A program made the translations under genes and the position numbers. A stretch of 64,000 nt of DNA, taken from contig PCXQ01000001.1 of assembly GCA_002794035.1 (NCBI GenBank), forward strand, positions 3,256 through 67,255, given 5' to 3'. Below, one piece after another: positions 9,424 through 50,783 of this stretch. The first letter of the stretch is position 1. Each line of letters starts with the position of its first letter. Below the pieces are notes generated by a model. The model was not told the DNA's origin, ran no database searches, and worked only from the letters and a program-made list of their open reading frames with translations. The stretch is from Candidatus Yanofskybacteria bacterium CG10_big_fil_rev_8_21_14_0_10_36_16 (GTDB lineage: Bacteria > Patescibacteriota > Minisyncoccia > 2-02-FULL-40-12 > IGHO2-01-FULL-4-A).

Positions 9424-9446
9424 ATATAAACAATAAACAAAACAAT

Positions 9447-9479
9447 CCCCCGCAATTGCGGGGGGTTTGTGTTTTTTTT
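9447..9479 (+). terminator. Rho-independent terminator after uvrB
   Basis: cccccgc-aatt-gcggggg stem-loop followed by a T-rich run. Confidence 0.7.
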
Positions 9480-26150: not shown

Positions 26151-26232
26151 GGGCGAGTGATGAAATTGGCAAACATGCACGACTCAAAATCGTGTGCCGC
26201 AAGGCTTGAGGGTTCGAGTCCCTCCTCGCCCA
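26151..26232 (+). tRNA. tRNA-Leu (anticodon CAA)
   Basis: Acceptor gggcgag/ctcgccc, anticodon stem cacga/tcgtg with loop ctCAAaa, 13-nt variable arm, T arm gaggg-ttcgagt-ccctc. No encoded CCA. Confidence 0.9.
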
Positions 26233-26283
26233 CTTTTTATAGCTTATCATAGGGTGCTTAAAATAAATTCAGACAGAAATTAG

Positions 26284-33718: not shown

Positions 33719-33721
33719 TTA

Positions 33722-34366: not shown

Positions 34367-34389
34367 TTTATAGTTATTGATGTATTTAG

Positions 34390-35724
34390 TTAGAAGGCAT
34401 GTCGCTCATTTTTTGTGATTTTTTGTAAAAACATTTTTTGTTGTTTTTTCTTTTGTAACCAACCCAACTTACACAAATCAGTTACTACTGACTGGGATAT
34501 TTTATATAGTTGTTTATCTAAATCAATCACCGTATTATCAACTTGTAATGCCAAATCATTCAAGCCCATTAATTTGATACCATTTAGTGTTCTAACGCGG
34601 GATAGAGCCACATAACCCATCCCGTAAGTAAATGACTTGCTAAGGTCAATTTCTGCAGCGTCTAAGCTCATCCCTTGGCTCTTGTGGACCGTAATAGCCC
34701 AAGCAAGCCGCAGGGGTACTTGGCTTATCTCCGCTTTTATAAGGTCATTTTCTTCAACGGTCCAACTTGTTGGCCGAGCTGCCACTTCTTTGCCTTTAAT
34801 TGTTTTGATAATAGGATAACTATCACCATCAAAATCAATTACTTTGCCCAATGTTCCATTAACATATCCTTTATCAAAATTGTTCTTTACAAACATTACT
34901 ACGGCATCCTTTTTTAAGGTAAGCTCTTCCGGAGCCAAGCAGCCTTTTTTCAATGATTCTACAAGATATTTTTCACCCCTGCATTGCATTTTATAAGTTT
35001 TTGGTTCGCTTTCAATTTTATTAAGTTCAAAGTTATTAATTGCATCCACATCAACATTATGAGTATAAAGTTTGGTAGGAGTTATATTAGTAACGGCCGG
35101 TTTGTTAAACCGGCTTGTTAAAAGACCAAGTGATGTGTCAGATGTTTTGCCAGCTCTTATATCATTTAACACATTAAGAAAATTAAGATCTTGTTGCCGG
35201 TATTGTTCTGTCAGATAGCAAATCTTTATATTCATGTTCTCCCAAGCTTTAGATGTGTGTATAAAACTATCATCTTCACCATTTTTTGATACTGGCGGTA
35301 ATTGAAAAAAGTCTCCGGATAAAATTACCTGCAAACCGCCAAATGGCAAATCATTTTTCTTAAACGCTTTGCAAACCTTATCTACCATGTCTAATCGGAA
35401 TGAGTGAAGCATTGAAACCTCGTCTATTATTAAAACTTTTGTTTTTAGGAATCTTGCTCGGAAGTTAATATTTTTAAGTAACTTTGATAAATGATCATCG
35501 GTAATCTCGTTTTGTATTCCTAATCCCGCCCAAGAGTGTATTGTCCGGCCATTCATATGAGTTGCGGCAATGCCGGTTGAGGCGGTTATACCAACGCCAA
35601 TATTTTTCCCTTTCAGAAAGTTGATATACTTGTTTAATAAAAAAGTTTTCCCGCTTCCAGCGGGACCAGTTAGATACACATTATGTCCAAGTTTTAATAT
35701 ATCTAAAGCTTCCTGTTGGGTCAT
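34390..35724 (-). CDS. SF1 helicase, PIF1/RecD-like
   Basis: 444 aa. GPAGSGKTF, TIHSWAGLG, LIIDEVSM, GDFFQLPPV, ITVHKSQGMSLD. Confidence 0.85.
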   Translation of the reverse strand: MTQQEALDILKLGHNVYLTGPAGSGKTFLLNKYINFLKGKNIGVGITASTGIAATHMNGRTIHSWAGLGIQNEITDDHLSKLLKNINFRARFLKTKVLIIDEVSMLHSFRLDMVDKVCKAFKKNDLPFGGLQVILSGDFFQLPPVSKNGEDDSFIHTSKAWENMNIKICYLTEQYRQQDLNFLNVLNDIRAGKTSDTSLGLLTSRFNKPAVTNITPTKLYTHNVDVDAINNFELNKIESEPKTYKMQCRGEKYLVESLKKGCLAPEELTLKKDAVVMFVKNNFDKGYVNGTLGKVIDFDGDSYPIIKTIKGKEVAARPTSWTVEENDLIKAEISQVPLRLAWAITVHKSQGMSLDAAEIDLSKSFTYGMGYVALSRVRTLNGIKLMGLNDLALQVDNTVIDLDKQLYKISQSVVTDLCKLGWLQKKKQQKMFLQKITKNERHAF

Positions 35725-35743
35725 AAATTAAAAACTTAAAAAC

Positions 35744-37531
35744 TTAAAAACTTTGATAATACTCCCTTATCATATTAGCCATTAATTTTTGTCTTTCTTC
35801 CAGAAATTTTTGATAATCAGTAACTTCCATATCTAACACACTTACTGGTATGGCATTTTCTTTCAAGTTGTTTTCAAGCTCATTCTTGTCTTTAATGCCA
35901 CTGTATTTGAAAACCCCATTTTCAAGATGTTCCAATATTTCAGTAAAGTATTGTTTGGGTGATTTTGCTCCGATTTTGATATTAATTTCACTTTGTGTGT
36001 AGGCAAAATTGGCTATTTGGTTGTAATCTCTCTGTTTTAGCTTGTTGCTTTCAAGATATTTTTTGGGAAATATATGGTGTATATCTCCACGATGTATAAT
36101 CATATCTCGTACTTTTATATCAGTGGAAAGAAAACCTCTTTTTCCTAATTTTACTTGTGCTGCCCAAAAAAGTTTTAAGTACGGACTGGATATACTAGAT
36201 TTAACTAAATCGCGCACCAGACCTTCTGACCAGAATGTATCTGATAATTCAGCCCTCTCTATTCCTTCAAGATATTTTTCAGCACGCTGCTCAACGATGT
36301 TTCTTATATCTGTATCAAATTGGCTTTCGGGAGACCCAGAGTATCTTCCTATTAGCAGCGACATTATGAGCCACTTGCTAACTATACGCTCTATTTCAGA
36401 ATCATTGTATTCTTGTGATCTCAATTTGAGATATAAAATATAAGCAAAGTTTAAAGCATTTTTTGAACGAATTAACCCGCTTACTTCAAACCCCGCTGCC
36501 TTAACTATCATAGAAAAGCGTTCATAATGAGTTTTGTTTACAAAATCTAATACGCCGTTTTTTAATTTATTATAAGAATCCTCAACGATGGCTTCTTCGT
36601 AAGCCCTTGTTTCAAAGTTTCTACCAGATAGTAAACTTACCAAATCCCTCAACCTTCCGCGATTAAACTCTTTAGTAAAGCCAACCCTAATAATATCGGT
36701 ATAATCTGGTTGATAAATGTCATCCTGCAAGTTTTTGGCCCAAAGTATTTTTTGATAATATTCTGTATTAGTAAAGTCATCACTGGCGGATTTAATATTT
36801 TCAATAAACTCCGGATGTCGCAGAGTATGCGCAAAGTAATCTATTGCTTTTCTTAGATTTATCCCAAAATCTCCAAATGCTGCGATTCGTGACATTGCAA
36901 AGTCGGCCTGACTTAACACAACCCCCTCGGAGTTAATCCTGATAAATATTTCAGTAACCGTTTCTATATCAAGATTTTCTTTTAACTCTATAAATCCGAG
37001 CTGCTTATCTTTGATAGAATAAAGCTTGTCAATGTTGTTTTGAATGGTTTGTAAGTCTGCTTTTGGATTTCTTTTTTTGTATTCGTCTACAAGCGCAAAA
37101 ATACCTCCCTCATTTTTCAAAAACTCCGAAATATCACCAATCCAATTAACATCTTTTTCAATCGCGGGTGTTAATGTTTCAAACTTTTCCTCAATGGGAT
37201 TGAAGGCAATCCTGATTCTCATTTTTCTATATTCCTTGTCTAAAACTTCTTCTCCGAGAATGGCTGCTCTTAGTGCCGTAATTCGCTGCTGTCCGTCTAT
37301 AACAATTTTTTTACCGGATGATAAACTGCCATCTTTTAGACGAATAGATGGGTTACGCCATACAATTATGTAGCCAACAGGAAAGCCTTTATAGATAGAA
37401 TCCATCAAATCCCTCACTTTAATTGAACTCCACACAAAGGGTCGTTGAATCTCTGGTATAGCAATTTCATTGGACTGAACCCAGCTTAAAATGTCTTTAA
37501 TAAAATATTGATTTATAATGTATTGTTGCAT
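35744..37531 (-). CDS. DUF262/DUF1524 protein (GmrSD-like Type IV restriction family)
   Basis: Start moved to MQQYIINQ, 4 nt after the res stop. EIQRPFVW and IDGQQR (ParB-like NTPase) N-terminal; HRGDIHHIFPKKYL His-Me finger C-terminal. Confidence 0.85.
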   Translation of the reverse strand: MQQYIINQYFIKDILSWVQSNEIAIPEIQRPFVWSSIKVRDLMDSIYKGFPVGYIIVWRNPSIRLKDGSLSSGKKIVIDGQQRITALRAAILGEEVLDKEYRKMRIRIAFNPIEEKFETLTPAIEKDVNWIGDISEFLKNEGGIFALVDEYKKRNPKADLQTIQNNIDKLYSIKDKQLGFIELKENLDIETVTEIFIRINSEGVVLSQADFAMSRIAAFGDFGINLRKAIDYFAHTLRHPEFIENIKSASDDFTNTEYYQKILWAKNLQDDIYQPDYTDIIRVGFTKEFNRGRLRDLVSLLSGRNFETRAYEEAIVEDSYNKLKNGVLDFVNKTHYERFSMIVKAAGFEVSGLIRSKNALNFAYILYLKLRSQEYNDSEIERIVSKWLIMSLLIGRYSGSPESQFDTDIRNIVEQRAEKYLEGIERAELSDTFWSEGLVRDLVKSSISSPYLKLFWAAQVKLGKRGFLSTDIKVRDMIIHRGDIHHIFPKKYLESNKLKQRDYNQIANFAYTQSEINIKIGAKSPKQYFTEILEHLENGVFKYSGIKDKNELENNLKENAIPVSVLDMEVTDYQKFLEERQKLMANMIREYYQSF

Positions 37532-37535
37532 AAAT

Positions 37536-40217
37536 CTATTTTTCCCAAAGTCGGGCCGCTTCATCAAAGCTTTTCGGCTTCTGTGATAGCTTATCCCAAT
37601 CTTCTTGTTTAATATAAAGCATTTTGTATTTAACGTCGTTCTGAATACTATTAACATCTTTTATCCATTGTTCCAAGCGTTTTATTTTCTCAACATCGTC
37701 TAAGTCTTCGCGGCCTTTGGTTTCTATGATGTACACTTCTTTTTCTGAAACCTTTACGAAAAAGTCCGGGTAGTAATTTGAAATATCACCACTGGCATTT
37801 CGGTAATCAATCCTAAAATTAACTGCGAAGTAGTTTTTAGCATAAGAAATTATATCTTCCACTCCATCAAGAAAACCGGCAAACTCAAGTTCAAAATGCC
37901 CATCTCCAACTATTTTATTAAATGCGCTTTTCTTCGGTACAAGATATGCTTGATCCTTCACGACAAATGGTCGGCTCTTACTAATCTTAATATAATTTTG
38001 GATCTCGGCCTCGCCCTTATCTACCACGGTCAATTCGTTTATCTTCTTCTTAAATGTTTCTGTTACTGTTTTGCTGGCTTCAAGCTCTGACAAATTACGC
38101 AAAGCATTAAGATCGTCCAACTGTATTTTTTTATCAAAAAGGTTGTTTTCAATAAACTCTTTTACTTGGCCGTATAGAATATCATAACCGCTAAATAACC
38201 GAAGCTCTTTCATAATAACATTGGTAAAATACCCTATAACACTTTGGTAATCTGGTATGAAATTACTATCTAACTCTGTCTTGTGAGTTATATCACCGCT
38301 GGTAATATCCCTGAATATAATTTCGCGCTTTTCTTCTTCTGAAAACTCCTTTAATTTAACTTTCTTGTGACCAAATGTTGAAACATCAAGGTCTGAAAGG
38401 TTTTTATATTCCCGATAAATACGCGGTGTAAGAATGGGTATTTGAATATCTAACCTCGGTATATCTTTTTTGGTGTTTTCATTATCAACCTCAACAACCA
38501 AAGGAGCTTTAGGTTCTGTGCCTTCTCCCATTTTTCTGTGCTCAAGCTCAACACCTTCACTTTTAATAGATTCCACAAAATCCATAAAAGCATCTGTGCC
38601 CACTACACTAACTAATTCCGGCACTTCTTCGTTGCGATACATTCGTCTTAACCCTCTTCCAAGTGTTTGTTCTGGCAATATGTTGCTCTTTGAAGAATAA
38701 GGCCGCAATCCAACAATGGTTGTAACATTACGGACATCCCAACCTTCTTTAAGCATTAACACGGAAACTATGGCCTTATAAGGATTATCAAAATTATCAA
38801 TCTTGTTTGCTGCTTCCCGCAGCTTTTTTAATTCCTCCTCATTTTTCCCAGTTGCGCTTTCGGATATTTCACCGTTATTTTTTGTATGAATTACTAATAC
38901 AGAGTTTTTAAACTCCGGATAAGTATTTTCAAGATATTCAGCAACTTCATCACCGTTCTTAGTATCGTCGGTCATTAAAAACAAAACTGCTTTTTTGCCC
39001 AGTTTTATATGTTCATCATAAACCTTTTTCCACTCCAAATAACCGAGATGGACATAGTCCTTGTATTTCTCACTGAACTTTGAACTTTTATGCTCTTGTA
39101 GCTTGGCTCGGCTTGCAGAATCGGGCAGGACCGGACGCTTTACTACGTTTTGGTGAATGGCTTCAACCAATGGGTAATCGCTTATTGTTTGAACAAATAT
39201 AGCTCCGTTATTATGTCTTGGGGTAGCTGTTACATCAATTTGTAAAGATAATTCTTTGCCTTTCATCTTGAGACGATTGTGTATATCTTCTATGGACTTA
39301 AACCACGCTAAACGGCCATCGTGGATATGGTGCGCTTCATCATTTAGTACAACCAGCTCATCTATATCTCTAACTATTACCCCAAGATCAACTTTTGATT
39401 CATTTGTTGCGCCAACTGGTTTTTCGCCAAGAAAATATCGGGCCGTGTTTTCATCTTCAAAACTCGCAGCACTGCTATTACTCTCATAAACCCGATGAAT
39501 GTTAGTTAGAAAAATGTTTCCAGTTTTTTTAACTACACCTATTTCGTCTTGAATATGCAAAGTTAATTGAAAATCATCCCGCCAATTTTGGCCTGCAAAA
39601 CCATTATCCGGAAGTACCGGGTCTTCAAAAAATATCTTTAAGCCGTCAAAATCAGACCTGATACGGTCTAAAACAATAATGTTGGGGGTGATAACCAAAA
39701 AGTTTCGGGCTAATTTTGAATCCTCTTCATAAAGTTTATGAAAGAAGCTCCAAGCAAGAAGTAAACTTAACACCTTTGTCTTGCCGCTTCCGGTTGCCAT
39801 TTTTATTACGAAACGTAACCAGGATTCTTCAAACATTCCTGCTGAAACTGCTCCGGAACTATCAAATCTTATAAGGTCGTATTTATCTTTTACTTTTGCT
39901 ACTTCGTGGAGATAAATGGTTGTTTCTACTGCTTCTCTCTGTCCAAAATAGTATTGAAAAAGAAAGGTCTCTCCATCTGTATTTTCTCTTGGGTGGTCTA
40001 TTTTAAACCACCATTTAAGTAACGCTTTACTTGTTTCACTTGCCCCTTCATAATCAGCATCTCGCCATTCTTTGACCTTCCTACGAAGTTGATCCACTAA
40101 AGGCGGTAAAAGCCGAGCATAGCCCTGTTCTCTTAATGTCTCGTCTGCCGGAAACCACCGGAGGTCCGGGTTTAAAATCTCGTGAGGTGATTGTGGAAAC
40201 TTAGGGTGTAGTGCCAT
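37536..40217 (-). CDS. res: Type III restriction enzyme Res subunit
   Basis: 893 aa. MATGSGKTKV, LNDEAHH (DEAH), helicase C motifs, C-terminal YYPDFFV...YIIETKG PD-ExK nuclease. Confidence 0.9.
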   Translation of the reverse strand: MALHPKFPQSPHEILNPDLRWFPADETLREQGYARLLPPLVDQLRRKVKEWRDADYEGASETSKALLKWWFKIDHPRENTDGETFLFQYYFGQREAVETTIYLHEVAKVKDKYDLIRFDSSGAVSAGMFEESWLRFVIKMATGSGKTKVLSLLLAWSFFHKLYEEDSKLARNFLVITPNIIVLDRIRSDFDGLKIFFEDPVLPDNGFAGQNWRDDFQLTLHIQDEIGVVKKTGNIFLTNIHRVYESNSSAASFEDENTARYFLGEKPVGATNESKVDLGVIVRDIDELVVLNDEAHHIHDGRLAWFKSIEDIHNRLKMKGKELSLQIDVTATPRHNNGAIFVQTISDYPLVEAIHQNVVKRPVLPDSASRAKLQEHKSSKFSEKYKDYVHLGYLEWKKVYDEHIKLGKKAVLFLMTDDTKNGDEVAEYLENTYPEFKNSVLVIHTKNNGEISESATGKNEEELKKLREAANKIDNFDNPYKAIVSVLMLKEGWDVRNVTTIVGLRPYSSKSNILPEQTLGRGLRRMYRNEEVPELVSVVGTDAFMDFVESIKSEGVELEHRKMGEGTEPKAPLVVEVDNENTKKDIPRLDIQIPILTPRIYREYKNLSDLDVSTFGHKKVKLKEFSEEEKREIIFRDITSGDITHKTELDSNFIPDYQSVIGYFTNVIMKELRLFSGYDILYGQVKEFIENNLFDKKIQLDDLNALRNLSELEASKTVTETFKKKINELTVVDKGEAEIQNYIKISKSRPFVVKDQAYLVPKKSAFNKIVGDGHFELEFAGFLDGVEDIISYAKNYFAVNFRIDYRNASGDISNYYPDFFVKVSEKEVYIIETKGREDLDDVEKIKRLEQWIKDVNSIQNDVKYKMLYIKQEDWDKLSQKPKSFDEAARLWEK

Positions 40218-40218
40218 A

Positions 40219-40614
40219 TTAGGTCAATCTGTAGATATATGCGTCTTTAATAAAAATACCGTTAATGATGTTTGATTTAAATCTAATACCTGCTTTTGAC
40301 TGTTTTGATGTTTTTATCATTGTTCTCAAAAGTTTCAGAAAGTCATTATCGTGATGAAGTATTGTTATATTTGAAAGTCCGATGTCTTTTACTGTTTTTT
40401 CTTCCCCGAATTGATTGATGAAATCATTATAATTTTGCCGCGTATTTTTAATACGGTCATATTTTTTTGATGAAATTAATAATCTCCAAGCATCTGACTC
40501 GGGAACAAGTATCCAAAGAAAAACCGTTGGATTTATTTTTTGTTTATCCATCAAATCTAATAAGGTTTTTCCACTTTCAATTTTTGGTTCTTCTACCATA
40601 ATTTTTTTATCCAA
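40219..40614 (-). CDS. 131-aa orphan protein paired with HEPN (no nucleotidyltransferase motif)
   Basis: Overlaps the HEPN gene by 22 nt and ends 1 nt before the res start. No GSx10DxD MNT signature. Confidence 0.55.
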   Translation of the reverse strand: MDKKIMVEEPKIESGKTLLDLMDKQKINPTVFLWILVPESDAWRLLISSKKYDRIKNTRQNYNDFINQFGEEKTVKDIGLSNITILHHDNDFLKLLRTMIKTSKQSKAGIRFKSNIINGIFIKDAYIYRLT

Positions 40615-41030
40615 ACTAAAATACCCTTACGCCTATCTTTTATTGAGTTGATTAAAGCTTCTGCGTCAGTTTTCTTGCATATTCCATATCTGCTTTCTTC
40701 GGTCCAATCTTTAACCGTGCTCCAATTTGACTCAAAGCCCTTATCTTTGCCTGCTCTCTTATCAAAGGCCCACTTGATACCACTTACACTCAATAAGTCG
40801 TTTAAATCGTGACTATAGAGTTTCTGATAAACACTCTTTTTTGGAGGGAAGCTCTTTTCTTTGACATTTTTGCAATAGCAAGCCTTGAGGGCAAGTTCAA
40901 CGGCATAACCTGCTAAATAGTAAGCACCACTATACTCCTTATTATTAAAAAGGGTTATCGCTTCTCTGATGCGCCTCAATGCTAACTTTTTAAAATCACC
41001 GTATTCTGGATTGTCCCAAAATAAAGCCAT
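40593..41030 (-). CDS. HEPN domain protein
   Basis: 145 aa. AYYLAGYAVELALKAC...SHDLNDLL...EESRYG pattern of HEPN (PF05168-like). Confidence 0.7.
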   Translation of the reverse strand: MALFWDNPEYGDFKKLALRRIREAITLFNNKEYSGAYYLAGYAVELALKACYCKNVKEKSFPPKKSVYQKLYSHDLNDLLSVSGIKWAFDKRAGKDKGFESNWSTVKDWTEESRYGICKKTDAEALINSIKDRRKGILVWIKKLW

Positions 41031-41033
41031 ACT

Positions 41034-43283
41034 TTATATACTAATCTCAATTATTTTCATTGTATCGTTACCGAAAATATCTACGACCTTTATGGCAATT
41101 TTACGTCTGCCTTTTGGTAATTCTTTATAAGCGGTTATAAACTCAAGGTTTCTGTCCTTTTTGGTTCTAAATGATTGCCATTCGTTTTCAAAAATGTAAT
41201 CGCCGGTCCATTGTTCTTCAATTTCTTCCTTTTCGTTTTTTATAGCCACAACTTCTTTTTTGCTTTCAAAGTTAAAGTCAACGGACCAGTAATCAATCCA
41301 ATCACTCCATTTTTCAGTCAAAACATCCCTTGTAACTACACCCTCTTTGTCTTTTGAGATTTTAATAATTTTACCATTTTCTACTACAAGCTTTTTGCTG
41401 CCGTTTTTGAGGCTTTCTTCTACCTCTTTAATTGAATCTTGATTATAAAAAACTGAAAAATCAGTTAACTCAATGGCCAATGAGTTCTTTTTTATATGAG
41501 GCTTAACTTCAATGTAAGATACGTCGTGAAAAACAACTTGGTTTTTTTCTACAGCCCGTTTGTCAAATACATCTCGTGGAATATATTTAAGGGCCAAATC
41601 AACACCTTGATTTTTGGCATCTTCTTGTATTCTCGGAAATAATCCCATTTCAAACTCAAAAGCCAATATGTCTACTTTAGTTATTTTCTTTTCAACTGCT
41701 TCTTTAATTACTTCTTCAACAAATAACCGAGTAACTGGCAAGTTAATTGGGCCAACAGATACTAATCTTGCAGATTTTTTACCGAAAAAGGTTTTGAAAT
41801 TATTAATTGGTTCTGCTTTGTATGCTGACAGGATTAAAGAAACAAAATCTTTTTCTTTCTGTGCGATTTGTTTTTGCTTTTGCTCGTCCCGAAGATTGGG
41901 GTTTATACCAACGTAATGCTGCCTTTCATATTTACCAAGATTTAATACTTCAAATGCCCGATAATCTTTCCCAGTCTTTTTAAGTTCTCGTTGCACTCCA
42001 ATCATTCTCTTGCGTGTTGTGTGAATTGAGAACTTACCCAAGTCAGAACCAATCCATTTGCGGCTTAGTTTTTCAGCTGCAGCAAGGGTGGTACCAGAAC
42101 CGACAAAGAAGTCGGCAACAAGATCGTCCTCGTTTGAAGAGGCCTTTATTATGCGCTCAAGTAAGGACTCTGGTTTTTGGGTTGGATAATTATTACGTTC
42201 TTTAGCCATTGGATTAACTGGATTTATATCTAGCCAAATATCTTCAGAAACATTTCCTTTAGTATCTTCGTAAAACCTTTTTACATATGGTAACCCACTT
42301 TCAGAAAAAACAATAAGTCCCCGTTTCATTCCTTCATCTATTCTTTCTTGAGACCATATCCAGTGTTTGCCTGCCGGTGGATACAGCAACTTTTCACCGA
42401 ATTTTTTTGCTTCACCTTGTCCCTTTTGAGTAAAATCAGCCAAAGAATATCTTTTTCCCGTTTGCTCATCGGTGTACCTGTAATGAGTTTTTAATAATTT
42501 TTCCGATTTCGGTAAAAATTGAGTATTAAAAATAGTCTTCTCTTTATCTTTTGAATAAAAGAAGACTGTATCATGTACGTTTGGATAAGTTTTTGACTGT
42601 GGCTTAGCCGATGTCAGTTTTTGCCAAATAATTTCATTTTTAAAATTATTAGTTCCAAATATCTCATCTAATACCAACCTCATGTAGCTGTTAACCCTCC
42701 AATCACAATGTACATAAATACTCCCGTTTGCGGCCAACAAATCTCGCATCAGTGAAAGTCGCTCGTAAATCATAGAGATAAAACTATCTGCTCCCTTGCC
42801 CCAAGTATCCCGATATGCTAATTCCTCTAATACTGTTGGTTGTTTCTTAAACTCTTCGCCCCCAACCTCAATATCCATAGAAAAATCTGCCCCAACATCA
42901 AAAGGCGGATCAATGTAGATAAGTTTAATGCCCCCATTAGCTTCAATTTCTTCTCGTAGGGGTCCATTTTTTAAGCTTGATAGGATTAGTTTGTTGTCAC
43001 CCCAAATAAGTTTATTAGTCCAGCCCTTGATTTGGCGGCCGCGCTGGTCAAAATCAAACAACACCTGCTGGCGCTTTACTTCCTTCTCACTTCTCGGCTC
43101 ATCAACCTGTTCAATAACCTGAAATGGCAAGATAACATTGGTGACTTCATTTGTCTTGCCGTTCCAGACAAGCTCAACCTCTCGTTTGTCCTCAAACAAA
43201 AGAAACCGGTACTTATCGGGAAGAGGTTTACCGGCTTCAATAAACTTTATAGCATCGCGTTTTTCATTGTCAGTTAGATCCAT
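41034..43283 (-). CDS. mod: Type III R-M Mod subunit (beta-class N6-adenine/N4-cytosine DNA methyltransferase)
   Basis: 749 aa. IYIDPPFDVGADF (motif IV) precedes DFFVGSGTTLAAA (motif I). C-terminal extension of about 330 aa. Confidence 0.9.
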   Translation of the reverse strand: MDLTDNEKRDAIKFIEAGKPLPDKYRFLLFEDKREVELVWNGKTNEVTNVILPFQVIEQVDEPRSEKEVKRQQVLFDFDQRGRQIKGWTNKLIWGDNKLILSSLKNGPLREEIEANGGIKLIYIDPPFDVGADFSMDIEVGGEEFKKQPTVLEELAYRDTWGKGADSFISMIYERLSLMRDLLAANGSIYVHCDWRVNSYMRLVLDEIFGTNNFKNEIIWQKLTSAKPQSKTYPNVHDTVFFYSKDKEKTIFNTQFLPKSEKLLKTHYRYTDEQTGKRYSLADFTQKGQGEAKKFGEKLLYPPAGKHWIWSQERIDEGMKRGLIVFSESGLPYVKRFYEDTKGNVSEDIWLDINPVNPMAKERNNYPTQKPESLLERIIKASSNEDDLVADFFVGSGTTLAAAEKLSRKWIGSDLGKFSIHTTRKRMIGVQRELKKTGKDYRAFEVLNLGKYERQHYVGINPNLRDEQKQKQIAQKEKDFVSLILSAYKAEPINNFKTFFGKKSARLVSVGPINLPVTRLFVEEVIKEAVEKKITKVDILAFEFEMGLFPRIQEDAKNQGVDLALKYIPRDVFDKRAVEKNQVVFHDVSYIEVKPHIKKNSLAIELTDFSVFYNQDSIKEVEESLKNGSKKLVVENGKIIKISKDKEGVVTRDVLTEKWSDWIDYWSVDFNFESKKEVVAIKNEKEEIEEQWTGDYIFENEWQSFRTKKDRNLEFITAYKELPKGRRKIAIKVVDIFGNDTMKIIEISI

Positions 43284-43371: not shown

Positions 43372-43785
43372 CTAAACGAGAAATTGAGCGACAAACCAGA
43401 TGCCGGCAGTAATTAAAAACCATATCAACTGATTGGCTTCCCTAAAATCTCCGGAGCGGTAGTAGCGGCCAACTTGGGTTACGGTAAATATCGCGGCAGT
43501 CATCGGGATAAAGTTAAATGGAATATCAAATCTAAAGGACACGAGATAATATACGATTATTAAAGCTACCGCTTCGGAAAAACCCGAAAAGCGTGATTTT
43601 AAAATATCGCTATGTTTATCTAACAACCCTTTGAATGGGGCATAAATGAACATAGCAATAATTGGACTAATGGCTGCGATATAAAACAATGAGAATAAGG
43701 CCCATAAGAATGGCAAAAATATAAAAGAAGAAATAATAACTATACCCCATAGCAGTAAACTAATTTTTGATTTTATTACATCCAT
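43372..43785 (-). CDS. Small four-helix membrane protein, unknown function
   Basis: Start moved to MDVIKSKISLLLWG (137 aa). 88 nt upstream of mod on the same strand. Confidence 0.55.
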   Translation of the reverse strand: MDVIKSKISLLLWGIVIISSFIFLPFLWALFSLFYIAAISPIIAMFIYAPFKGLLDKHSDILKSRFSGFSEAVALIIVYYLVSFRFDIPFNFIPMTAAIFTVTQVGRYYRSGDFREANQLIWFLITAGIWFVAQFLV

Positions 43786-43810
43786 AAAATTACAAAACCC
43801 GCCGCTAGGC

Positions 43811-43897
43811 GATGGATTTCTCCACCTGTTACCCTTTCGGGTAACAACCACTGCTGGTGCTCCTAAACGACGGGTTTAGTACCCAGCAGTGGTTTTT
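43811..43897. promoter_or_regulatory. Cluster of GC-rich hairpins (candidate structured leader or small RNA)
   Basis: gatgga-tttc-tccacc, gttaccc-tttc-gggtaac (GAAA loops on the minus strand), and a 10-bp stem ccactgctgg/ccagcagtgg enclosing ctaaac-gacgg-gtttag, then TTTTT. Confidence 0.4.
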
Positions 43898-44012
43898 ACG
43901 TCATACCTCAAATGTTGACATTTTGAGGGTTAGGCAATTTTTAGTTGTTAGACCAATATTATCACAAAACCTTGAAAATCTCCATAATTTTCGTTTTACT
44001 TAAATTAATACT

Positions 44013-44768
44013 ATGGCCTTAATTAACGACAAACAATTTAAACAATTTTTAGAACTCCTAATAAATAAGGTTGAATTAAGAAACGATATTCATTTGGGAA
44101 TACAATACCGTGAATTAATCCAAATATTTTTAGATGATAACGCTATCAAAGATTATTTGCGCTATTCTGAAAATAAGAAGTTGTTAAAATTAATAGGCAT
44201 ATCTAAATATAAAGAAAAGGAAGATCCTTACCCTGATGATTATTATATAAACGAGATAACGCCTAACAATGATTTTATAGGCCCGAAAAGATATTATGCC
44301 GTAAAGAGGTATATACGGTATAATTTCTACCCAAAGGACAACTTTATACTTGATGTGTCTGATAAAAAAATTAAAGGTTTTTATAAGCAGTATCAAAAAG
44401 AAGGTCCGGGGCAAGACCCAAAACGGCTAATTTCCAAAAATAAAAGTGCTTATTTTTATAAATCAAAACAAATAGTTTTTGACAGTGAAGAAACTGACTA
44501 CTTCAGAGTATTTGATGTCCTTTACGAAAATAGTGGGCAAGACAACTTTTTGTCATATGAAAATATAGATAAAGAAATGGTCCGAAGGGGCTCGCCAAAA
44601 CTTATAGATGATCAACAAAAAATTAAACGTATTCATAATGCAGTTAAGAACTTATTTTTATATTCTCGTTGCGGAAGTGAAAAGCTAAAAAATACTACGC
44701 CCAATAAAACTGAACTAATAAAAAAGGTTAGAGGGAGAGGGTGTGTTTTCAATAACCCTCTAATTTAA
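44013..44768 (+). CDS. Hypothetical protein, possible C-terminal winged-helix
   Basis: 251 aa. C-terminal KKVRGRGCVFNNP resembles OmpR/PhoB-type wing endings. Confidence 0.45.
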   Translation: MALINDKQFKQFLELLINKVELRNDIHLGIQYRELIQIFLDDNAIKDYLRYSENKKLLKLIGISKYKEKEDPYPDDYYINEITPNNDFIGPKRYYAVKRYIRYNFYPKDNFILDVSDKKIKGFYKQYQKEGPGQDPKRLISKNKSAYFYKSKQIVFDSEETDYFRVFDVLYENSGQDNFLSYENIDKEMVRRGSPKLIDDQQKIKRIHNAVKNLFLYSRCGSEKLKNTTPNKTELIKKVRGRGCVFNNPLI

Positions 44769-44899
44769 TAAGTTATCTCTCAATTTCTTGTGGACAGCCA
44801 AATATCGGCTGTCTTTTTTTCTTTTTTTACTTGGTTTTAGCGGCCAAAGAGATAAACGGAGAAATTAAAAGATATTAAATATTGATTCAAAATTAAATT

Positions 44900-45526
44900 A
44901 TGCAACCAATAATTAAAACTTTTACTGAACCGGATTGGGATTATCTGTTTTGGACTTGGGATTTAGAAAAACAATGGCAGGAGTCATTGCCAAGGCCAAC
45001 TGAACGAGAGTTGTTAGGTATTTTCCCGGAAGCAAAAAAGATATTGCCGGCATTATTAAGGGACTGGCAACAAAGAAAAAGTGAATTAACCAAAGAACTG
45101 GCTCGGAAATTAAAAATAGTAAAACTTGGCGCGGATAGCGACAGCGAAAGATTTTTCTGGACTGAATGGCTGAAAACAAAATATTTAGGAGAAATTACTG
45201 AAATCGTTAATGACATTAAAAAGTTCAAGAGAATGATGGCTATATCAAACAACCGGGGCCGAGCCTTACGAAGCGAAGAGTCATTGCAAAAGGCTTTAGC
45301 TGTGCCAATAGCATCGGCTATCCGAATTAAACTAAGAAAATTGGGTAATAAACTTGTTGGGCTGTGTCCCCTACATAACGAGAGTAACCCATCATTTTAT
45401 ATCTATACCGATACTAATTCCTTTTATTGCTACGGATGTGGCAAGGGTGGAAATGTAATCAACTTGGTTAGATTTCTACACGATTACACATTCCCAGAAG
45501 CAATAAAGTATTTAACTAATTTATAA
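44900..45526 (+). CDS. CHC2 zinc-finger protein (DnaG-primase-type finger)
   Basis: 208 aa. CPLHNESNPSFYIYTDTNSFYCYGCGKGGNVINLVRFL. Confidence 0.65.
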   Translation: MQPIIKTFTEPDWDYLFWTWDLEKQWQESLPRPTERELLGIFPEAKKILPALLRDWQQRKSELTKELARKLKIVKLGADSDSERFFWTEWLKTKYLGEITEIVNDIKKFKRMMAISNNRGRALRSEESLQKALAVPIASAIRIKLRKLGNKLVGLCPLHNESNPSFYIYTDTNSFYCYGCGKGGNVINLVRFLHDYTFPEAIKYLTNL

Positions 45527-45609
45527 CTTTTGTTTCTTGTTCGGGCTCTTGGCAAAGGCCATAGTAAGCTCCGGCCAGGAGCTCAAACAAGAAACGCGGA
45601 GCTTACTTT

Positions 45610-47154
45610 ATGTCAAACAACCAAAACAATGAAAAACAAAATAAGGAAGGGCGGAAACCACAAGCAACCAAAATCGTAGAATTGGTCAGTGAAAGCAACA
45701 TAACCCTATTCCATAACGAGTTAAAACAGCCCTATGCCTATATTGAAATAAATAACCATAGCGAAATATGGCCCTGTGAAAGCAGGCAATTTAAGGACTG
45801 GCTGGGACACATATTTTGGAATAACGAAGGAAAATCTGCCTATCCTAATGCGATAAACGGTGCGCTATCAACATTAAGAGCCAAGGCGCTTTACGAAGGA
45901 CAGAAGTATAAACTAAACAACCGAGTAGCAATCAAAGACGGTGCAATTTGGTATGACCTTTCTAACAATAACTGGGAAGCGGTCCGTATAAGCAAAAATG
46001 GATGGCGAATCATAGGCAACCCTCCTATCATATTTCAGCGCTTTTCTCATCAGCAAGAACAATTAACCCCGGTACCAGAAGGAAATATAAAGGATGTCTT
46101 ATCGCTAATCAATGTAAAAAAAGAACACCAACTGCTTTTATTGGTTTACTTAGTATCCTGTTTTATTCCGGACTTTCCCCATCCGATATTGGTGGTTCAC
46201 GGGCCTCAAGGCTCATCAAAATCAATGCTATCCAAAGTTCTTAAAAGCTTAGTTGATCCATCTGTATTAGAAACTTGCGACTTCCCTGCAAGTAAAGCGG
46301 AACTGGCTCAAATACTATCCCACCATCACTATGTTGTCTTTGATAATCTCTCGTACCTATCAGATTCAAATTCCGACATTCTATGCCGTGCTGTTACCGG
46401 AGGAGGATTTTCAAAACGGGAACTCTACACGAACGACGAAGACGTAATACACCTATTTAAGCGTTGCATAAACCTCAACGGCATAAATCCGGTGGCAACA
46501 AAACCAGACCTGCTAGAACGAAGCATATTACTGGAATTAGAAAGGATACCCAATGAAAAAAGGAAAAAAGAGACAGATATTTTGCAGCAATTTGAAACCA
46601 AGAGACCAGAAATATTAGGGGCAATCCTAAACACAGTTGCCAAAGCAATGGAGATTAAAGAATCAATAAAAGTAACTGGATTGCCGCGGATGGCGGATTT
46701 TACAGAGTGGGGTTGCGCTATCGCTGAAGCAATAGGACATCCAAAAGAAGAGTTTTTATCTTCTTATTTTGAAAACATAAAGTCGCAAAATGACCAGGTT
46801 ATTTATGATAGCCCTGTTTGCAGTACTCTTTTGAGCTTAATGAAGGAGCGAGAGCAATGGAATGGAACAGCAACGCAACTTTTATCTGAGTTAATTGAAG
46901 AGGCGGAAAGGTTAAATATCAACACAAAAGAAAAAGGCTGGCCCAAATCAGCAGCGTCATTAAGCGGTAAATTAAATAACTATAAAACCAATCTTGAAGA
47001 AGCCGGTATAAAAATAAATCGTTTTGATGAAAACAGGCAAAGACAATTATCTATCAGCAATGATTCTGCTATTGAGAGCCAGGCCGGCAACGGATTAGCC
47101 GAAGAAGACGATAGAGACGCTGCAACGCTCTCAACGCTCTTTCCCGAGCATTAA
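45610..47154 (+). CDS. P-loop NTPase, putative element replication helicase (phage/plasmid primase-associated type)
   Basis: 514 aa. VVHGPQGSSKSMLSKVL Walker A and VVFDNLS Walker B-like. Follows the CHC2 gene. Confidence 0.55.
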   Translation: MSNNQNNEKQNKEGRKPQATKIVELVSESNITLFHNELKQPYAYIEINNHSEIWPCESRQFKDWLGHIFWNNEGKSAYPNAINGALSTLRAKALYEGQKYKLNNRVAIKDGAIWYDLSNNNWEAVRISKNGWRIIGNPPIIFQRFSHQQEQLTPVPEGNIKDVLSLINVKKEHQLLLLVYLVSCFIPDFPHPILVVHGPQGSSKSMLSKVLKSLVDPSVLETCDFPASKAELAQILSHHHYVVFDNLSYLSDSNSDILCRAVTGGGFSKRELYTNDEDVIHLFKRCINLNGINPVATKPDLLERSILLELERIPNEKRKKETDILQQFETKRPEILGAILNTVAKAMEIKESIKVTGLPRMADFTEWGCAIAEAIGHPKEEFLSSYFENIKSQNDQVIYDSPVCSTLLSLMKEREQWNGTATQLLSELIEEAERLNINTKEKGWPKSAASLSGKLNNYKTNLEEAGIKINRFDENRQRQLSISNDSAIESQAGNGLAEEDDRDAATLSTLFPEH

Positions 47155-47186
47155 TAAAACAAGGGGTACTACCCATAACTTAAGTT

Positions 47187-47558
47187 ATGCAGTGTAAATA
47201 CATAAAAAATAATAAAAAACAGTGCGGAGCAAACGCAATGCTCAAAAACAGTTATTGCTTTTATCATAATCCGGATGTCAAAAAAGCAGATAAAAAAGAG
47301 GCTCAATCAAGAGGTGGTAAGGGCAATAAAAGTAGAGTTAGTGAAACTCTTCCGCCAATAACTTTCAAGAAGTCCCGAAACGTCGTCGGATTGCTTGAGG
47401 AAACTATTAATTTGGTTAGGGCAGGAAAAATGGAAATACGAGTTGCTAACTGCATAGGATACTTGTCGGGCCACATCATCAAGGCAATTGAGGTTTCAGA
47501 GCTTACGCAACGCCTACAGGAAGTTGAGAAAAAAATAGAAATAAAATGGCAGGAATAA
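47187..47558 (+). CDS. Hypothetical protein (mobile-element small ORF)
   Basis: 123 aa, basic N-terminus with Cys pairs. Overlaps the next ORF by 13 nt. Confidence 0.5.
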   Translation: MQCKYIKNNKKQCGANAMLKNSYCFYHNPDVKKADKKEAQSRGGKGNKSRVSETLPPITFKKSRNVVGLLEETINLVRAGKMEIRVANCIGYLSGHIIKAIEVSELTQRLQEVEKKIEIKWQE

Positions 47559-47836
47559 CTTTATCTACAATAAAAAGATTAGAGAAAAAAGCCGAAGAAT
47601 TAAGGGCGGCAAATCCAATAGTGGACCGGGTCATAACTGTTCCTTGGCCTTTAGAGATTTATAGCGAAGAGGGAGAAAGATTTATCCAAGAGGAAATTGA
47701 GCGGCGAAATCAAATTAGGAAAGAATCCGGTATTTATTCCGAAGGTCCTTTCTACGTGATTATGCCGGGTAGAATGCCTCAATGGGTGGCCGAAGAAGAA
47801 TGGAGGAAACAAGAAGAGGCAGAGAAACTTAAATAA
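47546..47836 (+). CDS. Hypothetical protein (mobile-element small ORF)
   Basis: 96 aa, charged. Translationally coupled to the upstream ORF. Confidence 0.5.
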   Translation: MAGITLSTIKRLEKKAEELRAANPIVDRVITVPWPLEIYSEEGERFIQEEIERRNQIRKESGIYSEGPFYVIMPGRMPQWVAEEEWRKQEEAEKLK

Positions 47837-47866
47837 TTTCCAATTTTAAGTTATAATGAGTAAACT

Positions 47867-47959
47867 ACACAAAAACCCAAATAGTAGTCAAGACCTTGAA
47901 CATAACGAGGGGCAACGAGGGTTTTTGTGTAGTAACAAAACTTCTTGTCGTTGCCCCTC
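47867..47959. promoter_or_regulatory. Two interlocked perfect 12-bp inverted repeats upstream of the recombinase gene
   Basis: A: acacaaaaaccc (47867-47878) pairs with gggtttttgtgt (47919-47930). B: gaggggcaacga (47907-47918) pairs with tcgttgcccctc (47948-47959). Confidence 0.6.
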
Positions 47960-48058
47960 TTTGTGCTATAAGGCGTCCTCTGTTTTAGATCCCAAGTCAT
48001 TAGAACAAGCATATTTTAGAATTTTTGACTGGGTTTTAGAAAACAAGGACAGTAAATT

Positions 48059-49702
48059 ATGGAAAAAACAAAAAGATTAGCTGCTCTATATGGTAGAGTA
48101 AGCACATCAAACCAAGAGGACCAGAAAACAATTGAGAACCAAGTTGATGCTCTTAATGAGTTAGCGAACAAAAATGATTTTACCATTGTTCAAGAATATA
48201 AAGATGATGGTTGGTCCGGAGATATTTTAGCCAGACCGGCCCTTGATCAGCTAAGGCAAGATGCAAAAAGTAAAATATGGGATACTTTGTTAATTTACGA
48301 TCCGGATAGGTTGGCCCGAAGATACTCATACCAGGAGTTGATTATGGACGAGTTAAAAGAGGCCGGGGTTGAAGTGATATTTATTACTGTATCTGCACCA
48401 AAAAATCCTGAAGATAAGATTTTGCATGGAGTTCGGGGGTTATTTGCAGAATATGAGAGGGTACGGATTACAGAACGTTTTCGTTTAGGAAAGCTCCGCA
48501 AGGTAAAAAACGGCCATGTATTAACAACGGAAGCCCCTTATGGCTATAACTACATAAGAGGAGACAGAGAAAGGCAAATACACGGTTATTATAAAATTAA
48601 CCCCGAGGAAGCAGAGGTTGTAAAAAAGATTTTTCAGTGGATTGGGGATGAAAAACTAAATATCAGAGCTGTTGTAAGAAAATTAAAAGAAGTAGGAATT
48701 AAACCAAGAAAAGCCAAAAGAGGTGTTTGGGCTACGAGCACAATATCAACAATGCTAAAAAACGGGGCTTATATTGGAGAGGCACATTGGGGTAGTTCGT
48801 ATGCAGTAGTACCCGAAAATCCAATCAAAAAAGAGAAGTATAAAAAAATGAAAAAAAGTAGCCGGAGAATAAAACCGAAAGAAGATTGGATAGCATCTAA
48901 AATACCTGTACCTGCCATAATAACCAAGGAGCTGTTTGCAAAGGTACAAAAACAACTAAAAACAAATTCCTCTCTATGTCCAAGAAATAAAAAATATACA
49001 TATCTACTAGGCGGCAAAATACATTGTGTATGCGGTAAAACCAGAAGTGGAGTAGGCCCACAGCGCGGTAAGCATCTATACTATCGCTGTAATGACAGGA
49101 TTTATAGCTTTCCTATACCTCCTACCTGTAAAGAACAAGCCATCAATGCAAGGATAGCTGATGAATTAGTTTGGAATAAAATAGCAAATCTTATGAGTTC
49201 ACCGGAATTGTTAAAAAACCAAGCAGAAAAATGGTCTGATTCTCGCAAGGTGGGGGCAAGATCTCATATTGGCGATATAGAAACAACAGAAAAGGAAATA
49301 TTAAAGTTAAAAGCACAGGAGGATCGCTATAATAAAGCATATGGTGCCGGGGTGTTTGATATAAACCAATTAAAAGAGTATGTTGCTCCGGTAAGAGAAC
49401 GAATAGAATTGTTAAAATCCCAAATAGTCAAAATCAAACAGGAAGAAAACCAGTCGCAAGACAATGCCCTCCCCTCGCTAGATGAAATCCGGTCATTTAC
49501 GAAAGTAACAAGAAATGCTTTATTTAACTTGAATTTTGAAATGAAAAGAGCCACAATTTTAAATGTTATAGATAAAATTATCGGTACACAAAAACAATTG
49601 AAGGTGTATGGTCAAGTGCCGATAACACAAAATTATGTCACATACAAAACTAGCTATCGGTATAGTCGGGTTGCCCAATGTTGGAAAATCAACATTATTT
49701 AA
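48059..49702 (+). CDS. Large serine recombinase (integrase)
   Basis: 547 aa. N-terminal resolvase domain (AALYGRVSTSNQ), recombinase domain, Cys-rich zinc ribbon (CVCG...YYRC), coiled coil. The last 68 nt overlap ychF. Confidence 0.9.
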   Translation: MEKTKRLAALYGRVSTSNQEDQKTIENQVDALNELANKNDFTIVQEYKDDGWSGDILARPALDQLRQDAKSKIWDTLLIYDPDRLARRYSYQELIMDELKEAGVEVIFITVSAPKNPEDKILHGVRGLFAEYERVRITERFRLGKLRKVKNGHVLTTEAPYGYNYIRGDRERQIHGYYKINPEEAEVVKKIFQWIGDEKLNIRAVVRKLKEVGIKPRKAKRGVWATSTISTMLKNGAYIGEAHWGSSYAVVPENPIKKEKYKKMKKSSRRIKPKEDWIASKIPVPAIITKELFAKVQKQLKTNSSLCPRNKKYTYLLGGKIHCVCGKTRSGVGPQRGKHLYYRCNDRIYSFPIPPTCKEQAINARIADELVWNKIANLMSSPELLKNQAEKWSDSRKVGARSHIGDIETTEKEILKLKAQEDRYNKAYGAGVFDINQLKEYVAPVRERIELLKSQIVKIKQEENQSQDNALPSLDEIRSFTKVTRNALFNLNFEMKRATILNVIDKIIGTQKQLKVYGQVPITQNYVTYKTSYRYSRVAQCWKINII

Positions 49703-50783
49703 TGCCCTGACTAAAAAACAAGTAGATATTTCTAATTATGCTTTTACAACGATCGACCCAAATGTCGGGGTTGTTGGGGTACCTGATGAAAGATTAGATA
49801 AATTGGCCAAGATGTCTAATTCCGAGAAAATTACCCCTACGGCCATTGAATTTATTGATATCGCAGGTCTTATTAAGGGCGCAGCAGAAGGAGAAGGGTT
49901 GGGTAATAAGTTTTTAGCTAATATTCGTGAAGTAGATGCCATTGCTCACGTAGTAAGGGTTTTTCCCGCCGGAGGCGGGTCCGCTCATGGCGGAGAAATA
50001 CAGCATGTGCACAAAAATATTGATCCGGTAAATGATATTGAAATAATCAATCTGGAATTAATAATGGCTGATTTGCAGACTATTGAAAGAAGATTAAGGG
50101 AGACAAAAGGCAATGACCCTGCCAAGACTTTTGAAAAAGAGGTGTTAAACAAACTTAAAGAAAATTTAGAAAAAGAAATTCTTGCAATAAACATTTTATT
50201 TACTGAAAAAGAACAAGAAATTGTTCGTGGGTTACATCTTTTAACCAACAAAAAAGTTATATATGCCTTTAATGTGGCAGAACAACAGTTGAAAGACAAT
50301 TGGCAGCCTAACAAAGAATTGCTTGATGTTATAAAAAACAATGAATTTGTTGTTGTCTCAAATACGTTTGAACAATTGCTATCTGAATCAGACCCTGAAG
50401 AAAAAAAGGTTTATCTTGAAGAACTAGGTTTAAAATATAGCGGTTTAGATCAGCTTATAAAAAAAGGATACAAGGCTCTTGGTTTAATTACATTTTTGAC
50501 AACTGGTCCTAAAGAAACACGTGCTTGGACAGCTCATGAGGGTGATTCTATCCCCCGTGCGTCATCTGCTATCCATACTGATTTTGAAGAAAAATTTATT
50601 AAAGCCGATGTGATAAATTGGCAAACACTTTTAGATGTAGCGGTCCATTCGGCGGATTCGGGTTCCTCATCACAAGCAGGCTCAGGCCAAGCTTGGTCTA
50701 AAGCAAAAGAGCTTGGCAAGATGAGAACAGTTGGTAAAGATTACATAATTCAAGAAGGTGATGTAGTCGAGATTAAAATTTGA
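49635..50783 (+). CDS. ychF: Ribosome-binding ATPase YchF
   Basis: 382 aa. GIVGLPNVGKSTLFNALT, DIAGLIKGA, C-terminal TGS-like domain. Two GC-rich in-frame insertions. Confidence 0.95.
   Translation: MSHTKLAIGIVGLPNVGKSTLFNALTKKQVDISNYAFTTIDPNVGVVGVPDERLDKLAKMSNSEKITPTAIEFIDIAGLIKGAAEGEGLGNKFLANIREVDAIAHVVRVFPAGGGSAHGGEIQHVHKNIDPVNDIEIINLELIMADLQTIERRLRETKGNDPAKTFEKEVLNKLKENLEKEILAINILFTEKEQEIVRGLHLLTNKKVIYAFNVAEQQLKDNWQPNKELLDVIKNNEFVVVSNTFEQLLSESDPEEKKVYLEELGLKYSGLDQLIKKGYKALGLITFLTTGPKETRAWTAHEGDSIPRASSAIHTDFEEKFIKADVINWQTLLDVAVHSADSGSSSQAGSGQAWSKAKELGKMRTVGKDYIIQEGDVVEIKI

Follow-up and report, generated by a model that had tools for sequence, protein, structure and literature searches.

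A LOOT RNA heading mobile-element cargo in Candidatus Yanofskybacteria: a candidate leader with two competing folds

Locus and identity of the element

The 64,000-nucleotide (nt) stretch of contig PCXQ01000001.1 considered here, hereafter the window, is chromosomal, with genes for DnaK, UvrB, MurC, AspS and YchF, and its host, Candidatus Yanofskybacteria, belongs to the Candidate Phyla Radiation (CPR)/Patescibacteria; the DnaK it encodes shares 100% identity with that of a Candidatus Yanofskybacteria metagenome-assembled genome (CG10_big_fil_rev_8_21_14_0...). Within it lies an integrated element of approximately 17 kb that includes an 11-kb defence block, led by a cluster of hairpins which a preliminary description, made from the sequence alone, had matched to no known family. 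An Rfam/Infernal scan of the whole 64 kb returned two matches only, a transfer RNA (tRNA) and LOOT RNA (RF03000), the latter at 43811-43936 on the minus strand with 86.2 bits (E = 6.6e-15), well clear of the curated gathering score of 46.4 bits. The hairpin cluster is a regular member of this known family, which explains its identity and removes the novelty that had been open to it; between 43600 and 44100 no Rfam family besides LOOT, c4 included, was found at E up to 1. The RNA and its flanks comprise the following features, from 5' to 3'.

43958-43966, minus: putative extended -10 promoter box TGTGATAAT, read from the sequence and by comparison with related loci
43940-43948, minus: conserved leader or start-site motif ACAACTAAA (family consensus ACAAYTNAAT), from related loci
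43811-43936, minus: LOOT RNA core, helices P1-P6, by alignment to the Rfam model
43899-43936, minus: P1/P2 domain, P1 enclosing P2, with the internal loop CCUAAC...UAUGA (model alignment)
43893-43898, minus: conserved A-rich linker UAAAAA (sequence and model alignment)
43848-43892, minus: P3 stem, 43892-43883 paired with 43857-43848, the P4 region (43882-43858) inside (model alignment and fold)
43862-43881, minus: candidate 5' strand of a long-range helix, in the P3 loop and overlapping the Rfam P4 hairpin (duplex energy, covariation)
43828-43845, minus: P5 hairpin with GAAA tetraloop (sequence, model alignment, covariation)
43811-43826, minus: P6 hairpin with GNAA tetraloop, GAAA in the window (sequence, model alignment, covariation)
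43791-43809, minus: 3' tail, candidate 3' strand of the long-range helix, outside the Rfam model (duplex energy, covariation)
43786-43797, minus: U-rich run UUUUGUAAUUUU, up to the start codon (it ends at 43786, one base before the AUG), from the T content of the family

The match is full-length, covering model positions 1-121 of 121 with all six helices, and the window copy keeps every conserved nucleotide block of the family (CCUAA, AUG in an AUGG-like setting, AAAAAC with its AAAA-C core, GU, the GAAA of P5 and the GAAA, or GNAA, of P6). Its only deviations over the modelled positions are non-standard pairs, two each in P1 and P4. The minus-strand hairpins singled out in the preliminary description, ggugga-GAAA-uccauc, guuaccc-GAAA-ggguaac and a 10-bp stem enclosing a smaller hairpin, correspond to P6, P5 and P3 around P4, respectively. 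Their stability exceeds chance: over 163 nt, the minus-strand RNA reaches -71.1 kcal/mol (z = -8.1, 200 shuffles), and its plus-strand counterpart -60.3 kcal/mol (z = -5.3). The extent originally given, 43786-43900, takes in P3/P4, P5 and P6, the 3' two-thirds of the RNA, and misses the 5' P1/P2 domain up to 43936, beyond which the leader motif and the -10 box reach approximately 43966; its portion 43786-43810 is a conserved 3' tail.

LOOT was not known to occur outside marine metagenomes or in any classified organism. Rfam has listed it from release 14 onwards as an orphan, with metagenomic members only and no function assigned. The family derives from Weinberg et al. 2017 (PMC5737381), where the main text leaves it undiscussed; the Rfam 14 paper (PMC7779021) depicts it as a 'metagenomic-based RNA', the Rfam 15 paper adds two covarying pairs, and the CaCoFold paper describes approximately 43 base pairs, six helices and many cross-covariations. 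No function was found in these sources, the 2017 paper being represented by its main text, supplement aside, nor in the other literature searched. A full-length LOOT is now placed in a named lineage, Candidatus Yanofskybacteria of the CPR, at the head of the cargo of an integrated serine-recombinase element.

Related loci and conservation of the core

Homologues were collected from metagenomes with a search pattern made of the conserved positions of the Rfam consensus. This yielded at least 119 further LOOT loci (L044-L162), and all family counts below are among the matches listed. All 119 look like LOOT, and each of the 14 loci scanned with Rfam (14/14) holds exactly one copy, at 85-97 bits. 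Their sources include groundwater, sediment and digester or landfill samples, and their median G+C is 37.5%. Because the pattern constrained the Rfam-modelled region only, results on the flanks are free of its bias.

Covariation was assessed in an alignment of 93 sequences below 88% identity, where 90.1% of the cells are paired and 47 of the 53 pairs changed on both sides, a level reached by none of 500 shuffles. The conservation and covariation in relatives that had been suggested as a check are therefore present, the helices being kept by compensatory changes across the further loci. In P5, 98.5% of the cells are paired and all eight pairs covary (8/8). Its GAAA loop is strongly conserved in the Rfam consensus, as is the AAAA-C of the linker; the search pattern demanded both (the linker as AAAANC), and their invariance among the homologues accordingly carries no weight. 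The P6 loop varies across the family between GCAA (63), GAAA (30) and GUAA (16).

The internal loop of P1 resembles a described motif. The 11-nt receptor for GAAA tetraloops, found for example in the P4-P6 domain of group I introns, reads CCUAAG/UAUGG (PMC11381326). LOOT has CCUAA(A/C)...(C/U)AUGG, likewise between helices and in an RNA that also carries a GAAA loop (P5), whereas the closing G-U pair of the receptor is replaced by A-C or C-U in strict covariation: CCUAA[A] goes with [C]AUGG in 63 sequences and CCUAA[C] with [U]AUGG in 37, with one exception. The window copy departs further in reading UAUGA rather than UAUGG. This resemblance suggests that P5 might dock on the receptor-like loop of P1/P2 and so clamp P3 shut. 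A conserved mini-open reading frame (ORF) beginning at the AUG inside the receptor motif was also considered and rejected, as inspection of the homologue sequences revealed no conservation.

Position relative to promoter-like sequences and to the next gene

Upstream of the core, the motif ACAAYTNAAT stands 8-25 nt 5' of the Rfam start in 53 of 104 loci under a strict pattern, and is visible in most others. A TATAAT-like hexamer with at least 5/6 matches accompanies it in 37 of the 53 loci with the strict ACAAY motif, mostly ending 7-8 nt before it; the distance of the motif is fixed relative to this -10-like box and not to the LOOT core. Comparison of own-locus with cross-locus pairing found no RNA partner for the motif. 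A closing helix between it and the U-rich region, seen in a single-sequence fold, was discarded (own-locus -3.7 versus cross-locus -3.6 kcal/mol). The motif may mark the region where transcription starts, or be an operator for a DNA-binding regulator.

Downstream, for a set of 109 distinct LOOT sequences, the next gene within 600 nt shares the strand of LOOT in 93 of 95 cases and runs opposite to it in 2; on the upstream side, 65 neighbours are divergent and 27 co-oriented. The first plausible start codon follows the Rfam 3' end at a median distance of 54 nt. Of 103 loci, 86 have it within 80 nt, 33 within 45 nt and 21 within 35 nt, and in the window 25 nt separate the core from the AUG at 43785. 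Start codons so near to the Rfam 3' end leave most downstream genes no room for a separate promoter. In combination, the promoter-like box and motif upstream, the co-orientation and the short spacing indicate that the transcript of the downstream gene begins with LOOT as its 5' leader, and LOOT heads co-directional runs of up to 12 genes. With transcription starting at its putative site, a conserved structured domain occupies the 5' untranslated region of the next gene, as in riboswitches and attenuators. The minus-strand leader or riboswitch-like reading, one of three offered in the preliminary description, thus finds backing in the promoter-like box, the 93:2 co-orientation and the close start codons, to which the alternative pairings described below can be added.

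The genes that follow LOOT are diverse. Among 94 first downstream proteins we count 43 Pfam families, none of them in more than five, including zinc-ribbon proteins, DNA methylases, Mrr, GmrSD, SNase, DUF805, DUF6804, Ltp and a superinfection immunity protein. A leader specific to defence genes was considered and set aside, as only few first genes match PADLOC. What the first genes share, unexpectedly, is a link to membrane and secreted proteins: by a simple hydropathy rule, not a dedicated predictor, 69 of the 94 (73%) have at least one transmembrane-like or signal-like segment, which falls within the first 70 residues in 64. The share is 29% among the other ORFs of the same loci (odds ratio 6.9, p = 1e-16) and 13% among upstream neighbours. 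The first gene in the window, with four such segments, fits the trend.

A long-range helix with the 3' tail and two alternative folds

Directly after the Rfam 3' end the family continues with a tail of consensus GCUGGCGGNGAGCUUUNUG, followed by more U: positions +14 to +24 past the core are 51-85% T over 11 positions, falling to 15-30% thereafter. This tail is complementary to the P3 loop, that is, to the hairpin modelled by Rfam as P4. Duplexes of the loop with its own tail average -24.8 kcal/mol versus -14.1 with the tails of other loci, and the window duplex reaches -25.2 kcal/mol; the local P4 hairpin is worth only about -5 kcal/mol. RNAalifold, run on the 93 sequences, picks the loop-tail helix over P3. 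All 16 of its pairs changed on both sides (16/16), and 90.8% of its cells are paired versus 75.7% after shuffling (0/500 shuffles reach the observed value) and 44-53% with one partner slid, a control that flatters the helix since its columns were derived from the same sequences. P3 itself covaries at 9 of 11 pairs. Many loop-tail pairs are U-G in the minus orientation and would be A-C on the other strand, so that the signal belongs to the minus-strand RNA.

The geometry bears on whether both helices can coexist. P3 5' strand, 1 nt, the 16-nt pairing strand, 5-10 nt and P3 3' strand follow one another; the two loop-tail strands are separated by those 5-10 nt and the unpaired P3 3' strand, and then by 39-41 nt containing P5 and P6. 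Since a helix of approximately 1.5 turns cannot form within the closed P3 loop unless a strand is threaded through it, the full loop-tail helix and P3 are probably mutually exclusive, to judge from loop geometry and RNA topology and by analogy with kissing-loop antisense complexes. The two states are close in energy: the fold with P3 and P4 (fold A) averages -21.0 and that with the loop-tail helix (fold B) -25.0 kcal/mol, and constrained folding of the whole window RNA gives -59.9 and -57.1 kcal/mol, respectively.

The helix with its U-run has, on sequence, the shape of an intrinsic terminator. A G+C-rich stem (its GC-rich part is 96.5% paired) runs into a U-run, as such terminators require; the compact hairpin with a short loop that is also typical of them is absent. 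A terminator scan of the window flagged, in addition, a small local hairpin with a T-run in the tail. As the 3' strand of the helix occupies 43809-43791 and the U-run extends to 43786, immediately ahead of the AUG, fold B would in addition mask the region where ribosomes bind.

None of the features outside the Rfam model (promoter box and leader motif, loop-tail helix and U-run, leader position, association with envelope-protein genes) appears, as far as checked, in the LOOT papers, the 2017 supplement aside.

Additional pairings in the family

Two further complementarities occur. The P3 5' strand recurs in 15-17 of 105 loci: its second copy, often preceded by a copy of the linker, lies 28-55 nt past the core and ends at or just before the start codon, on the ribosome-binding site (RBS). 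Pairing of the P3 3' strand with this RBS copy at -14 kcal/mol or better is seen in 15 of 105 loci (14.3%) versus 3 of 2041 cross-locus controls (0.15%), the count of 15-17 loci standing against 0.15-0.8% of such controls. Twelve distinct P3 sequences are involved, each with an RBS copy that fits it. Furthermore, the 5' half of the tail can pair instead with a segment just past the U-run, in 36% of loci versus 14% of controls. Both pairings fit a leader that toggles between an 'on' state (P3, P4, tail with downstream segment) and an 'off' state (loop with tail, P3 3' strand with RBS); in the window they are at best marginal.

A possible mode of action and its alternatives

We propose that LOOT is a promoter-proximal leader whose two competing folds control read-through into, or translation of, the cargo of mobile elements, and we put the probability of this reading at about 0.55. 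The leader would be approximately 165 nt long, from about 43948 to 43786 on the minus strand, and would not be a free-standing gene, the same transcript continuing into the gene of the 137-amino-acid (aa) membrane protein and the defence block. In fold A, the Rfam structure, P1/P2 would present the receptor-like loop and P3 would be closed around the small P4, while P5 (GAAA) and P6 (GNAA) probably dock back and clamp P3 shut; with the 3' tail free, RNA polymerase would read on and the ribosome site would stay open. In fold B, P3 would open and 16-20 nt of its loop would pair with the tail at about -25 kcal/mol, with the U-run straight after, the whole acting as an intrinsic terminator. In the window the AUG lies 5 nt past this helix, and the ribosome-binding region would thus be blocked as well. 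In about one locus in six, the opening of P3 might also silence translation through the second copy of its 5' strand on the RBS.

Comparison over the 119 loci turns an 'unknown sRNA' into a hypothesis that can be tested by mutation, namely a leader with two covarying, competing folds. If it holds, LOOT would join a short list of regulatory RNAs known from CPR bacteria and the mobile elements they carry, and both the Rfam model and its 'sRNA' type would need extending; if not, the element stays an ordinary member of a known family.

Several points weigh against the proposal. The start of transcription, the 3' end at the U-run, read-through, the exclusion of one fold by the other and tetraloop docking are steps that we infer. 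The conserved core looks architectural, with no ligand pocket or binding partner recognised in it, and the downstream genes form no coherent regulon of the kind a riboswitch would govern. Up to one helical turn of the loop-tail pairing could coexist with P3 as a partial pseudoknot, and the RNA may then have just one fold and nothing to switch. P3 would form first during transcription and shares no nucleotides with the tail helix, which makes it hard to explain how fold B could arise fast enough for termination. The RBS copy is confined to approximately 16% of loci, and in the window the corresponding pairing is marginal (-10.9 kcal/mol) and falls inside the ORF. Finally, nine loci have their start codon more than 110 nt downstream; the spacer holds a promoter-like site in three of them, and a few further spacer sites of this type were seen by eye in the flanks. 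In such loci LOOT may be a separate unit.

These spacer sites also speak for LOOT being a free-standing, trans-acting small RNA (sRNA), with its own promoter and a long-range or pseudoknotted terminator, the downstream genes being served by leak or by promoters of their own. We regard this as unlikely. Rfam does assign the family to the type 'Gene; sRNA', which counts against a leader, the promoter-like box upstream and the strong helix with its U-run downstream would equally delimit such a unit, and RNAs cut from leaders, such as P1 c4 and P4 CI, can also act in trans. The 93:2 co-orientation is nevertheless not expected of it, nor are start codons of which 83% lie within 80 nt, and 33 within 45 nt, so that most downstream genes would be left with no other possible promoter; no trans target was found in the neighbouring sequence, which alone was examined, and the only complementarity seen is in cis, to the RBS of the next gene. 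We find it even harder to favour a constitutive leader with one fold, where the loop-tail pairing would be a partial pseudoknot and the RNA would protect or insulate the cargo messenger RNA (from 5' exonucleases or Rho loading) or modify the polymerase in the manner of put, with no regulated switch. The invariant nucleotides, which look architectural throughout (receptor-like loop, GNRA loops, A-rich linker), the high diversity of the cargo, suited to a generic expression module, and the position at the head of long co-directional runs would all agree with it. Against it, all 16 long-range pairs covary in a helix that linkers of 1 nt and 5-10 nt make too long for a closed P3 loop, the competing extra pairings (RBS copy; tail with downstream segment) covary with their partners, and the energies of the two folds are balanced.

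The two other readings of the preliminary description fare worse. That LOOT works as DNA, serving the serine recombinase as a recombination or attachment site where cargo and backbone meet, is highly improbable. Its location at the junction of the cargo with the recombinase-bearing backbone, the loci in which the recombinase gene is the immediate divergent neighbour, and one locus (L061) that looks like a recombinant of two LOOT variants, although it may be an assembly chimera, could be cited for it; yet G-U/U-G pairs kept on one strand only, GNRA loops, the receptor-like motif and covariation of the RNA type are properties of an RNA. Moreover, LOOT in the window is internal to the element, approximately 4 kb from the recombinase gene, with the cargo reaching left to about 32.6 kb and the recombinase beside ychF at the right end; each of the 14 Rfam-scanned loci has one copy rather than two flanking ones, and identical LOOT sequences at empty sites or element ends were not seen. 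A small plus-strand RNA ending at TTTTT is scarcely credible. The T-run exists (43893-43897) and follows the large stem, and the plus strand does beat its shuffles, but the run is just the complement of the conserved A-linker, the hairpin sets fold on both strands with the minus strand 11 kcal/mol more stable, Rfam matches the minus strand only, and the GNRA loops and the many U-G pairs, A-C mismatches on the plus strand, make sense on the minus strand alone.

Comparison with described systems

The leader reading invites comparison with riboswitches and attenuators built on a terminator platform. LOOT resembles them as a conserved structured leader right after a putative promoter, with two alternative pairings, one ending in a U-run, and a gene on the same strand. 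It differs in having no identified ligand and no coherent set of controlled genes, so that membership cannot be claimed, and in that its competing helices share no nucleotides, the probable exclusion by topology being unusual. In the Mg2+-sensing M-box, tertiary compaction decides whether the terminator forms.

The c4 RNA of phages P1/P7 and the CI RNA of satellite P4 are immunity RNAs encoded in leaders. Like them, LOOT is a structured RNA that would lead a mobile-element operon, and in the minority of loci described above it shows short direct repeats and a complementary segment inside the RNA, one repeat lying on the RBS of the downstream gene. In contrast, it has no sequence or structure similarity to c4 or CI, and its downstream genes are cargo and envelope genes and not antirepressor or replication genes.

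An integron platform consists of intI, attI and the promoter Pc facing the cassette array. In layout only, LOOT elements are similar, the recombinase gene being transcribed away from a fixed promoter region that would drive variable cargo. Their recombinase is of the serine and not the tyrosine type, there are no attC-like repeats between the cargo genes, and the conserved element is an RNA and not a recombination site.

In this light we advance, more tentatively than the leader reading itself, that LOOT might represent a new class of cis-acting RNA switch, in which a tetraloop-receptor clamp would oppose a loop-tail terminator or ribosome-site blocker, gating the envelope, superinfection-exclusion and defence cargo of serine-integrase elements in CPR/Patescibacteria, with a c4/CI-like RBS arm in some lineages.

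Genomic context in the window and in related loci

The genes around LOOT in the window are arranged as follows.

43372-43785, minus: first downstream gene, AUG at 43785, 137-aa protein with four transmembrane-like segments (hydropathy rule)
32672-43283, minus: co-directional cargo (type III methyltransferase, HEPN protein, 131-aa ORF, type III restriction subunit, GmrSD-like, RecD-like and other proteins)
44013-49702, plus: divergent backbone (251-aa protein without assignment, CHC2 zinc-finger primase-like protein, 514-aa protein without assignment, small ORFs, large serine recombinase)
48059-49702, plus: large serine recombinase, abutting ychF at the right end of the element

Neither the 137-aa protein nor that of the divergent 251-aa neighbour (44013-44768) has a Pfam, PADLOC or PHROG match. 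As only 76 nt separate the LOOT core from the 251-aa gene, the promoters of the two must overlap. Within the cargo, at 40219-41030 and between the type III methyltransferase and restriction genes, a HEPN-domain protein (145 aa) is followed by the overlapping 131-aa ORF, whose product has no significant family match; the two could be a HEPN/MNT-like toxin-antitoxin pair inside the restriction-modification operon.

At the other end, the recombinase ORF overlaps the longest ychF ORF (49635-50783) by up to 68 nt (49635-49702), which puts the apparent insertion point of the element directly at the start of ychF, on its 5' side. Immediate upstream neighbours of LOOT elsewhere include MMR_HSR1 (a GTPase domain) twice and YchF-GTPase_C once, hinting at a recurrent insertion site. 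A large serine recombinase is encoded in 19 of the 32 loci with at least 8 kb of sequence, mostly upstream and divergent, and excisionase-like helix-turn-helix (HTH) proteins and primases also occur. Some loci contain, by eye, a block resembling terminase large subunit, small HTH protein and methylase. On viral contigs, a first DNA pattern with 22 specified bases gave 42 matches, all of them A-rich chance matches, and was abandoned; a strict 3' pattern had no viral match and a single chance match (L043) in the GTDB genome collection. The pattern proven on metagenomes found nothing on IMG/VR viral contigs, and neither did BLAST among GenBank phages and PLSDB plasmids. Nothing in these searches therefore suggests that LOOT elements are recognised phages or plasmids.

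The LOOT of L061 (2438-2552, minus strand) has a P3 whose halves fail to pair with each other: its 5' half is of the type of L096 and its 3' half of that of L123/L125, with the change of type inside the conserved P4 region, and the downstream RBS copy agrees with the 3' half. Either LOOT variants have recombined naturally here, or the locus is a chimera of metagenome assembly. Another locus, L045, carries a group I intron (RF00028, 60.2 bits; 9429-9632, minus) approximately 5.5 kb from LOOT. Lastly, the tRNA of the window is a tRNA-Leu(CAA) at 26151-26233, approximately 17.6 kb from LOOT, and 5 of the 14 Rfam-scanned loci have tRNA genes at a distance of a few kb from LOOT (three in L050, and in L085, L092, L097 and L132), a proximity that may reflect the insertion sites of LOOT elements.

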